The position numbers were made by a program, and so were the translations under genes. A DNA stretch of 64,000 bases from IMG/VR virus record IMGVR_UViG_3300046798_000124, positions 10,168 through 74,167 of that record; one strand, 5' to 3'. Positions within the stretch are counted from its first letter, which is position 1. Each line of letters starts with the position of its first letter. Below, one piece after another: positions 45,456 through 46,657 of this stretch. Source of the stretch: a virus. The notes under the pieces were generated by a model, which did not search any database, was not told the DNA's origin, and saw only the letters and a list, made by a program, of their open reading frames with translations.

Positions 45456-45913
45456 TGGCCGCCAACCCGCTCGACATCTCCCGTGACGCCCCACGCGACC
45501 TGGTCCGCCTGCCGGCCGAGATCAGCGCCCTGCCATCGGCCTTCGGGGCGCTGATGAAGACGTACCGCGTCCGCTGCGGCCTTTCCCAGAACAAGCTGGC
45601 GCGATCCGCCGGCTGCGATCCCGCCTATGTCAACCGCCTCGAGCGCGCCCCGTCCACCACCACCTCACTCCCGAGTCGGCGGTTCGTGCTGGCCTTCTGG
45701 GAGGTCTTCATGGAGGCGACCACACACACCACCCGCCCGATCACCACCGATGACCGCGAGCGCCTGTTGGTTGCCGCCGGCCTCTGTCCTGAGACCATCC
45801 TGGCAGCCGGCGGCTGGGACGCCTTCGTCGGACGGATTCGCCGTCAGGTCGTCATCGGCTTCGTGTCTACCATCGAGCAGCTTGACGAAAGCTTGAGTCC
45901 CGCCGACCTCTAG
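45452..45913 (+). CDS. XRE-family HTH protein
   Basis: FGALMKTYR...LSQNKLARSAGCDPAYVNRLER. Confidence 0.8.
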   Translation: MMAANPLDISRDAPRDLVRLPAEISALPSAFGALMKTYRVRCGLSQNKLARSAGCDPAYVNRLERAPSTTTSLPSRRFVLAFWEVFMEATTHTTRPITTDDRERLLVAAGLCPETILAAGGWDAFVGRIRRQVVIGFVSTIEQLDESLSPADL

Positions 45914-45932
45914 GAGTCGGGTTGGCAAGGAG

Positions 45933-46318
45933 GTGATGACTCCGCCAGCTAAAGCAGGCGGCTTCTTGCGAAGCGTTCTGCATCAACAGCGGCTTCCGTA
46001 TCTACGCACGGACCAGTGTCCCACGTTAGCGATACGAGGCTCCATCCAAGCCCTGTGCCAGTGTGACTGGCGGCATGCACCTGCATACGACCACTCAATC
46101 AGTTTTACCCAGGCTGAGAGTTCGAGCCTGGAACCCACCGAACTGATTCTCTTGTCAAGGTGCGGGCTCCTGCCTGTCGACAGGACACCGCTAGCGATTG
46201 AAGCTGAGCGGCAAGAAGAACCATACGACCTGACGGTTGAGAACGTGTATCTGAGCGGGCTGCGGCCCTGCCCCATTCCGCTGCCAGCTAAAGCAGGCAG
46301 TCCCCTGGAGCATTTCTG
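45933..46318 (-). mobile_element. non-autonomous IS200/IS605-family derivative (no tnpA/tnpB)
   Basis: Near-identical subterminal hairpins GCCAGCTAAAGCAGGC at both ends; on the - strand it begins after CCAT and ends in TCAC; lower GC; no target duplication. Confidence 0.8.
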
Positions 46319-46657
46319 ATGGGCATGGCGAACGAGCCACCGCGGTACCTGATCTGGATCGGTGACAACGCCTGGGTCGATCCCTTCGAGGTGATCGCGG
46401 TCGACGCCTACCTCGAGGAGGGCGACCCGTCATGGGCCAGGTGCCGGGTGCTGTTGCGGTCTGGCCACATCCGCTTTGGACTGCGGTCTCCAGAGCGCGT
46501 CGTCGCCGCCGTCCGCCACCCGGAGCGCGAGAGCGAAGTCGCGGAGGCACGAGAGATCCACCCCGATCCGGAGACGCTCTCCTCGGAGCGGCATCGCGGC
46601 CAGGTCCACGACGTCTCGGCTCCCGAGCCGCTCCGTCCCAGATCCACCGAGGGGTAA
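46319..46657 (+). CDS. hypothetical protein
   Basis: 112 aa; original RBS separated from the start by the insertion. Confidence 0.55.
   Translation: MGMANEPPRYLIWIGDNAWVDPFEVIAVDAYLEEGDPSWARCRVLLRSGHIRFGLRSPERVVAAVRHPERESEVAEAREIHPDPETLSSERHRGQVHDVSAPEPLRPRSTEG

Follow-up and report, generated by a model that had tools for sequence, protein, structure and literature searches.

The window, a stretch of 64,000 nt analysed at its full length, belongs to a 74-kb IMG/VR virus record from soil and rhizosphere metagenomes, with ~68% G+C and an estimated completeness of 86%. The genes around the site considered here lie on the plus strand and comprise a dCTP deaminase gene, a gene for an XRE-type helix-turn-helix protein and a gene downstream of it (Table 1). 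The product of the downstream gene has no Pfam match, and a search of 5.8 billion proteins returned only the protein itself; it is encoded in three other contigs. Between the helix-turn-helix gene and the downstream gene lies an ORF-less stretch of 386 bp (the plus-strand open frame P0001, discussed below, is judged not to be a gene), with a G+C content of 0.58 compared with ~0.68 in the flanks. An earlier note on this DNA had described the stretch as an IS200/IS605 mini-element with matching end hairpins that looks like a stand-alone omega RNA, and its sequence statements on the extent of the element and on the hairpins at its ends all hold. The top strand of the element is the minus strand of the window. 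Read on that strand, the left end (LE) begins with CAGAAATG directly after CCAT, and the right end (RE) finishes with GGAGTCATCAC directly before CTCCTTGCC.

Table 1. Positions, in the window, of the element, its parts and the neighbouring genes.
Feature	Position	Strand	Remark
dCTP deaminase gene	44241-44822	+	neighbouring gene
Upstream gene, XRE-type helix-turn-helix protein	45452-45913	+	Pfam HTH_31, E=2.9e-9
Flank, would-be 20-nt omega-RNA guide CTCCTTGCCAACCCGACTCC	45913-45932	-	assigned by position only
Displaced Shine-Dalgarno AAGGAG of the downstream gene	45927-45932	+	read from sequence
Open frame P0001, 128 codons	45933-46319	+	spans exactly the element; judged not a gene
Whole non-autonomous IS200/IS605 element (PATE)	45933-46318	-	LE at 46318, RE at 45933; both ends common to ~100 loci, limits set by flank divergence
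RE	45933-45961	-	TnpA hairpin 45961-45942, then GGAGTCATCAC; cleavage after TCAC at 45933
Omega-RNA-like scaffold, ~290 nt	45933-46224	-	nhmmer, covariance model R1, covariation
H5	46027-46004	-	scaffold helix
H4	46036-46031 with 46002-45997	-	scaffold helix
H3	46052-46038	-	scaffold helix
H2	46132-46125 with 46115-46108	-	includes CCAGGCT/AGCCTGG (46131-46125 with 46115-46109); covariation-conserved across the family
H1	46148-46142 with 46103-46097	-	AATCAGT/ACTGATT; covariation-conserved across the family
-10-like hexamer TATGGT	46220-46225	-	aligns with the TGnTAnAAT-type box of mini-elements (alignment A1, columns ~88-102); weak evidence
LE	46269-46318	-	6-nt spacer, outer stem, guide GGGGACT, TnpA hairpin 46300-46281
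LE outer stem TGCTCCA/TGGGGCA	46312-46306 with 46275-46269	-	one T.G wobble at 46309
Substitute GGAG in the LE	46307-46310	+	8 nt before ATG 46319
Transposon-adjacent motif CCAT (ATGG on the + strand)	46319-46322	-	CCAT/TCAT before the LE in relatives
Downstream gene	46319-46657	+	112 aa from ATG 46319, 110 aa from ATG 46325; GC3 0.84

Each end carries a hairpin, CTGCC-A-GC-TTTA-GC-T-GGCAG at the LE and CCGCC...GGCGG at the RE, and both hairpins contain the same 16-nt core, GCCTGCTTTAGCTGGC, which is set in from the left boundary by 20 nt and from the right boundary by 11 nt. The two are in direct orientation, and their stems differ by a compensatory change. The element has no terminal inverted repeats, since its termini read CAGAAATG and ...GTCATCAC, and no target duplication is seen, the flanks ...AAGGAG and ATGGGC... 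having no repeat in common. At the right boundary, the flanks of 23 genomic copies diverge directly after ...TCAC, and an unrelated RE copy in another soil run matches the window from exactly 45933. At the left boundary, near-identical copies in one MAG all have CCAT and diverge upstream of it. The RE is identical over 34-35 nt in L135, a locus in a Chloroflexota MAG, and in L123. Statements that concern a Rubrobacteraceae MAG (L123, G005) rest on an unpublished genome, and our conclusions are independent of it because L135 has the same RE.

The LE architecture of the window element is common to 54 LEs, and in 47 non-redundant relatives the LE follows CCAT or TCAT. The base at -4 co-varies with the guide within the LE: across the 47 non-redundant LEs preceded by CAT, CCAT goes with GGGGAC and TCAT with GGA[GAT]AC, with one exception. 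This co-variation of guide and target is the pattern expected for TnpA.

An exact scan of viral contigs for the hairpin core returned at least 118 loci. In ~100 viral loci the similarity runs well past the 16-nt seed into both ends of the window element, and the ends are therefore not a chance resemblance. Relatives whose ends stand 1.2-1.7 kb apart enclose a Y1 transposase and/or TnpB (for example L022, L059 and L053). Scanning bacterial genomes with the RE pattern added 23 loci, which lie in Chloroflexota, Acidobacteriota, Oscillochloris trichoides DG6, a Rubrobacteraceae MAG and others, and which include L142, a full-length element with both genes. Pfam searches of the full-length relatives gave Y1_Tnp (1e-40), OrfB_IS605 (9e-32) and Cas12f1-like TNB (1e-24), and HTH_OrfB as well. 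In the relatives, tnpA and tnpB lie on the strand equivalent to the window minus strand; this places the LE at 46318 and the RE at 45933, and it bears out both the family and the orientation that the earlier note had assigned. Mobility of the family is suggested by near-identical copies with different flanks, which occur in one MAG (L133, L136, L143) and in soil contigs.

The window element itself holds no trace of these genes: a tblastn search with 23 TnpB proteins found no coding remnant inside it, in line with the earlier description of the stretch as ORF-less and free of TnpB remnants. The 74-kb phage record contains no second copy of the element and encodes neither TnpA nor TnpB. One candidate outside the window, a sub-threshold PF07282 match, is an HNH endonuclease with zinc ribbons and not TnpB. 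Judged by its ends and its relatives, the element is a non-autonomous, protein-less IS200/IS605 element (PATE), and these comparisons establish its identity, boundaries and orientation.

Genome and metagenome scans (Chloroflexota, Acidobacteriota, soil metagenomes) also found a family of gene-less elements of 320-470 bp, which are built of an LE, a variable hairpin, a TGnTAnAAT-type -10 box, ~270 nt of conserved sequence and an RE. At first, blastn of the window element had matched the ends only. An nhmmer profile built from 19 of the gene-less mini-elements, with the window excluded, matched the interior as well, on the minus strand at 46206-45933 (98 bits, E=6e-30, over 274 nt), and this match abuts the RE boundary at 45933. 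We also used a covariance model, R1, that covers only the 5' 165 nt and omits the RE-proximal part used to fish sequences. R1 matched the minus strand at 46224-46038 with 33.9 bits (E=6.8e-9), its sole match in the 64-kb window; the match extends over the full length of the model, and all 20 modelled pairs are standard. The covariance-model search that the earlier note had proposed thus gave a clear match to a model of this family, but none to a known one: Rfam had no match for the window at E up to 10 on either strand, and none for five related loci.

The interior bears the marks of selection on an RNA fold. From a MAFFT alignment of the window with 18 mini-elements, RNAalifold predicted 49 pairs, and 25 of the 49 show compensatory changes with both sides changed, compared with 6-12 in controls with slid partners. 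Paired cells amounted to 95.5%, against 36-41% when the partners were slid, and the covariation score was 0.461, against at most 0.079 in the slid controls. Because G.U pairs are frequent, the fold is specific to the tnpB-sense strand. Folding of single sequences was unconvincing on its own (z -1.6 and -2.1). Among the interior hairpins picked out in the earlier note, AATCAGT/ACTGATT and CCAGGCT/AGCCTGG are conserved with covariation throughout the family, whereas at the place of the third, GCCAGT/ACTGGC (46071-46066 with 46062-46057), relatives have a hairpin of different sequence. Identity between the window copy and the other mini-elements is only 53-59%, yet it departs at just 4 of the 69 columns that are invariant in all of them; two of these departures can be put down to misalignment of a helix, in another the pair survives as G.U, and the fourth is compensated. 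This pairing of low identity with so few departures indicates that the RNA lineage in the window evolved under long constraint on the RNA. From the profile and covariance-model matches together with the covariation, we conclude that the interior is a conserved structured RNA and not debris, and that its homology to the family is established along with its structure.

The full-length relatives suggest what this RNA may be. Its 3' 120-180 nt (H3-H5 and the RE hairpin) align to the tnpB 3' end and RE of full-length elements with E values of 1e-9 to 8e-22, and these full-length elements come from the same genomes that hold mini-elements. The distance from the tnpB stop to the RE is 103 nt in L142 and ~30 nt in O. 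trichoides. In O. trichoides, the H1/H2 region of the mini-element lines up collinearly with the part of tnpB that encodes the C-terminal peptide GYVADRDVNAAQNM; one stretch is identical at 11/11, and the score of the alignment between H1/H2 and the GYVADRDVNAAQNM codons is marginal when taken alone (z=3.2). R1 matched full-length elements weakly (L142, E=0.028; L031, E=0.26). The full-length relatives that we compared were L142, from a Pyrinomonas MAG and with tnpA and tnpB, L174, L185 and L189 from O. trichoides DG6, and L022 and L059 from viral contigs. Like the window element, they have the hairpin core, an RE that ends in ...TCAC and CCAT as their motif, and they share with it the 3' 120-180 nt of the RNA (H3, H4, H5). 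They differ in that the 5' half of their RNA is tnpB coding sequence, to which the mini-element model matches weakly.

In position, strand and 3' part, then, the predicted RNA fits an omega RNA well, and derivation of its 5' part from tnpB coding sequence is likely. The stand-alone omega RNA of the earlier note stands as a conserved structured RNA on the tnpB-sense strand with a homologous 3' part, but its 5' half, which resembles other mini-elements strongly, resembles full-length elements weakly. Likewise, the autonomous tnpB parent that the note had called for has counterparts in relatives with the same ends and with tnpA and tnpB, but the direct full-length parent of the window copy was not among the full-length relatives compared. 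On our reading, the element comprises an LE, a probable remnant of the promoter that belonged to it, a scaffold of ~290 nt for a TnpB guide RNA (omega RNA), which is complete, and an RE. A TGnTAnAAT-type box is conserved directly upstream of the RNA in related mini-elements; the -10-like box of the window is degenerate, and a simple scan for a sigma-70 promoter and a terminator found nothing. The guide would be the flank adjoining the RE, and its other near-matches in the window (48801, 53979) are without CCAT. Genomes with mini-elements have 9-50 tnpB matches and therefore offer ample partners in trans.

How does the downstream gene accommodate the element? The site geometry given in the earlier note is right, with AAGGAG ahead of the element, GGAG 8 nt before ATG 46319 and a second ATG at 46325. 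If the element is taken out, AAGGAG abuts ATG 46319 and stands 6 nt before ATG 46325, which is likely the original start of the downstream gene. With the element in place, AAGGAG is displaced 386 nt further from the start codon, and the GGAG in the LE may substitute for it. This GGAG depends on the A at 46309, the one place where the LE outer stem departs from Watson-Crick pairing (T.G on the top strand); in L085 and L103, the closest LEs, that stem is perfect. It is plausible that the change at 46309 created a Shine-Dalgarno sequence while keeping the DNA stem. Because the GGAG lies inside the outer stem, it may be partly sequestered in the mRNA.

The insertion persists beyond the one record: in two other soil samples, contigs with 100% identity run across both junctions. 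With the element removed, the joint would read ...GGCAAGGAG directly joined to ATGGGCATGG..., and no such empty-site joint occurred in the contigs of four soil runs; the sequencing runs listed as containing this DNA included no RNA run. Peptide scans of viral contigs with both flanking proteins returned no sister phage with an uninterrupted site; one related viral contig, L193, has only the 497-aa gene in common. Megablast and blastn searches of the phage GenBank collection with the region gave no match.

Collectively, we think it probable that a guide-RNA-bearing PATE was pasted into this phage, where a host TnpB could possibly use it in trans. The Y1 transposase (TnpA) of an autonomous relative in the host would have pasted the element as single-stranded DNA, 3' of CCAT on the phage minus strand and thus just 5' of ATGG on the plus strand. 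In this way the insertion would have parted the start of the phage gene from its ribosome-binding site, AAGGAG. It would have been tolerated, probably via the GGAG in the LE, and the element would now be fixed in the phage lineage. Transcription of the minus strand would start from the -10-like box near 46225 and run through the RE into the flank, and TnpB from a related host element would bind the scaffold. The 16-20-nt guide in the flank would then direct cutting of CCAT plus CTCCTTGCC..., a site present only in an element-free genome, and recombination with an element-bearing genome would restore or spread the element. We infer the transcription, the TnpB partner, the cleavage, the homing and the rescue of translation. 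The cutting of element-free siblings, followed by homing, would be a reasonable extrapolation of the published TnpB model, and we regard it as possible, if somewhat doubtful, that guide-RNA activity as proposed operates in this phage.

The element could instead be an inert passenger, a real PATE that landed once and was tolerated, with no compatible host TnpB or TnpA, no RNA made and no homing. Its presence as a single copy in a record without tnpA or tnpB would agree with this, as would the degenerate -10 box, the failure of the scan to find a promoter, and the 100% identity in other samples, in which no polymorphism was seen. Yet the element has kept both its ends, and all the conserved positions and helices of its RNA, intact despite 41-47% divergence from every other mini-element, a point whose weight is limited in that the constraint on the RNA could predate the jump into the phage. 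Moreover, the same soil run has other elements with an identical 34-nt RE, so compatible machinery is present in the community. We hold a passenger of this kind to be unlikely, while giving it real weight.

What the insert is can also be questioned. The 128-codon plus-strand frame (45933-46319) would make it a protein-coding gene whose translation is coupled to that of its neighbour: the frame coincides exactly with the element, has AAGGAGG directly upstream and ends in TGATG, where its TGA overlaps ATG 46319. Its start, however, is 0-2 nt from that Shine-Dalgarno sequence, its GC3 is 0.60 compared with 0.84-0.85 in both neighbours, and P0001 has no Pfam match. The DNA is, besides, homologous to non-coding elements that evolve by compensatory pair changes, with the structured RNA on the other strand, and the bottom strands of these relatives are also open for 56-149 codons, with translations that are not conserved. 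All this makes a gene very improbable. Some other structured insert, be it a group I intron or IStron, an inverted-repeat MITE (like the MPME of mycobacteriophages) or a phage regulatory RNA, would suit the size, the dense secondary structure and the intergenic position in a phage. It is hard to reconcile with the Rfam searches of both strands, which up to E=10 returned no match and no group I core. Because the strand that carries the structure runs antisense to the phage genes, it cannot splice from their mRNA; the element is without terminal inverted repeats or target duplication, and its ends are those of TnpA/TnpB elements, which leaves an insert of another kind with a negligible chance.

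We return to the guide-RNA-bearing PATE. ISDra2 and IS608 are autonomous IS605-group elements with TnpA and TnpB. They insert by peel-and-paste, 3' of a short motif (TTGAT or TTAC) and with no duplication; they have subterminal hairpins with guide nucleotides, and their omega RNA overlaps the tnpB 3' end and the RE. The window element is like them in its mode of insertion, its guide-bearing hairpins and the location of its omega RNA, all predicted from sequence in its case. It is unlike them in having no genes and in its motif, which is CCAT and not TTGAT or TTAC.

Gene-less PATE-like elements were reported in Geobacillus stearothermophilus by authors who state that omega RNAs are often encoded by PATEs and would need TnpB in trans, and who showed that TnpB cuts the donor joint, restoring the element (Meers et al., 2023; PMC10055086). 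The homing idea set out above is that model transferred to co-infecting phages. Like those PATEs, the window element has LE and RE hairpins, no ORF and a retained omega-RNA region, and it would likewise depend on TnpA and TnpB in trans and take its guide from the RE flank. It differs from them in lying in a phage genome, between a ribosome-binding site and a start codon, as well as in its hairpin GCCTGCTTTAGCTGGC, its motif CCAT and an RNA of ~270-290 nt that is absent from Rfam. The gene-less omega-RNA PATE is thus a kind of element already described, and the window copy is a well-supported further example, with unusually strong evidence for its RNA.

The example is clean and well bounded, and it shows that IS605 derivatives reduced to a guide RNA do enter phage genomes and are maintained in them. 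The same work delineates a family that is widespread in soil (Chloroflexota, Acidobacteriota, phages); its RNA of ~270-290 nt is supported by covariation and, being without an Rfam match, is a candidate addition to RNA family libraries. If the RNA were active with a host TnpB, the element would be a nuclease-free homing element in phage crosses.

A start codon is complementary to the target motif of the family, (C/T)CAT. Among 47 non-redundant insertions, 28 are flanked by an ATG that opens at least 60 codons, compared with 13/94 for the other two frames. A further observation concerns the LE, where CCTC, CTCC or TCCT occurs within 12 nt inside the outer stem in 21 of 54 LEs, against a background of 8%. 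On the strand of the captured gene, this CCTCC-type motif reads as a Shine-Dalgarno sequence (AAGGAGG), followed by the foldable LE stem-loop, 6-8 nt and then the ATG. The motif may be a portable ribosome-binding site, or it may be an anti-Shine-Dalgarno sequence for the control of tnpA. It is conceivable, though we think it quite improbable, that this is an IS605 lineage specialised for translation starts, combining a preference for start-codon sites with a portable ribosome-binding site and possible homing in phages. If so, the folded LE stem-loop in the mRNA would put AAGGAGG ~7-12 nt from the ATG and the insertion would be translationally silent. The phage copy would do the same via the GGAG that arose from a single, wobble-tolerated change in the stem, and the guide RNA could also allow homing between co-infecting phages via a host TnpB.

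The start-codon habit raises the question of how essential genes such as rpsM stay translated. The captured genes include rpsM, a response regulator and a nitroreductase, with Pfam domains that begin at residues 3-7. The five flanks tested by Pfam were full-length genes, ribosomal protein S13 among them, and their domains begin at residues 3-32.

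Gene-less members of the IS200/IS605 family that shares the window element's end hairpins were found immediately 5′ of bona fide start codons, in antisense orientation relative to the gene (L122:5051-5375, L166:649-985, L125, L136 and L139, among others). Across the loci with start-codon insertions, which were drawn from scans of bacterial genomes and metagenomes, the genes entered at their start include those for ribosomal protein S13, a response regulator, an isochorismatase, a nitroreductase and an M48 peptidase. Of 47 insertions, 28 have an open ATG frame; for the two remaining frames together the figure is 13 of 94.

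At the left ends, which adjoin the ATG of the captured gene, we find CCTCC-type motifs 0-4 nt inside the outer stem in 21/54 cases, against a background of 8%. Read on the captured gene's strand, the order at these ends is AAGGAGG, stem-loop, 6-8 nt and ATG. The motif could form a hairpin-bridged ribosome-binding site. Alternatively, it may be an anti-Shine-Dalgarno sequence for tnpA. The left end of the window copy does not carry the motif.

A frame on the plus strand is open over exactly the span of the window element (45933-46319), its terminal TGA overlapping the next ATG, and the bottom strand of related elements is likewise open, for 56-149 codons. The window frame is probably a compositional effect, the alternative being that it may be translated by read-through, coupled to the downstream gene.

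Near the right end, the segment GCCGCTGTTGATGC, on the minus strand, is similar to the right-end hairpin's 5′ arm. It can pair with the 3′ arm of that hairpin, giving an RNA alternative to the hairpin used by TnpA. In alignment A2 each pair of this helix is either unchanged or altered at just one of its two positions, and covariation is silent either way.

Features and their coordinates
Feature	Location	Strand	Remark
HNH endonuclease, 259 aa	G000:C1:8485-9264 (74-kb phage record, outside the window) = L121:1057-1836	- in L121	several CxxC zinc ribbons
Left ends with CCTCC-type motif, examples	L039, L050, L014, L106, L125, L127, L132		from a set of about 54 loci
Alternative right-end pairing	window 45995-45982 with 45955-45942	-	A2 columns 324-336 with 378-391

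We rejected a TnpB identity for the zinc-ribbon protein outside the window: its sub-threshold, Cas12f1-like TNB match came from the HNH endonuclease with its CxxC zinc ribbons.

The sole related viral contig found for the window, L193 (IMGVR_UViG_3300025941_000048), has in common with it a 497-aa protein (window 48457-49950; 72% identity) with weak similarity to Glyco_hydro_19. None of the genes neighbouring it is common to both, and a common gene among differing neighbours indicates a mosaic relationship between L193 and the window phage.

Contigs of sequencing run X4 that match window 45933-45966 and 46274-46307 show other elements in the window element's soil community. Their right end shares an identical 34 nt with that of the window copy, and their interior is different, similar to that of L135, a Chloroflexota MAG locus.

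At the loci L127:7201-7330 and L137:1763-1900 lie micro-elements of ~120 bp, hardly more than a left end fused to a right end, without the omega-RNA body.
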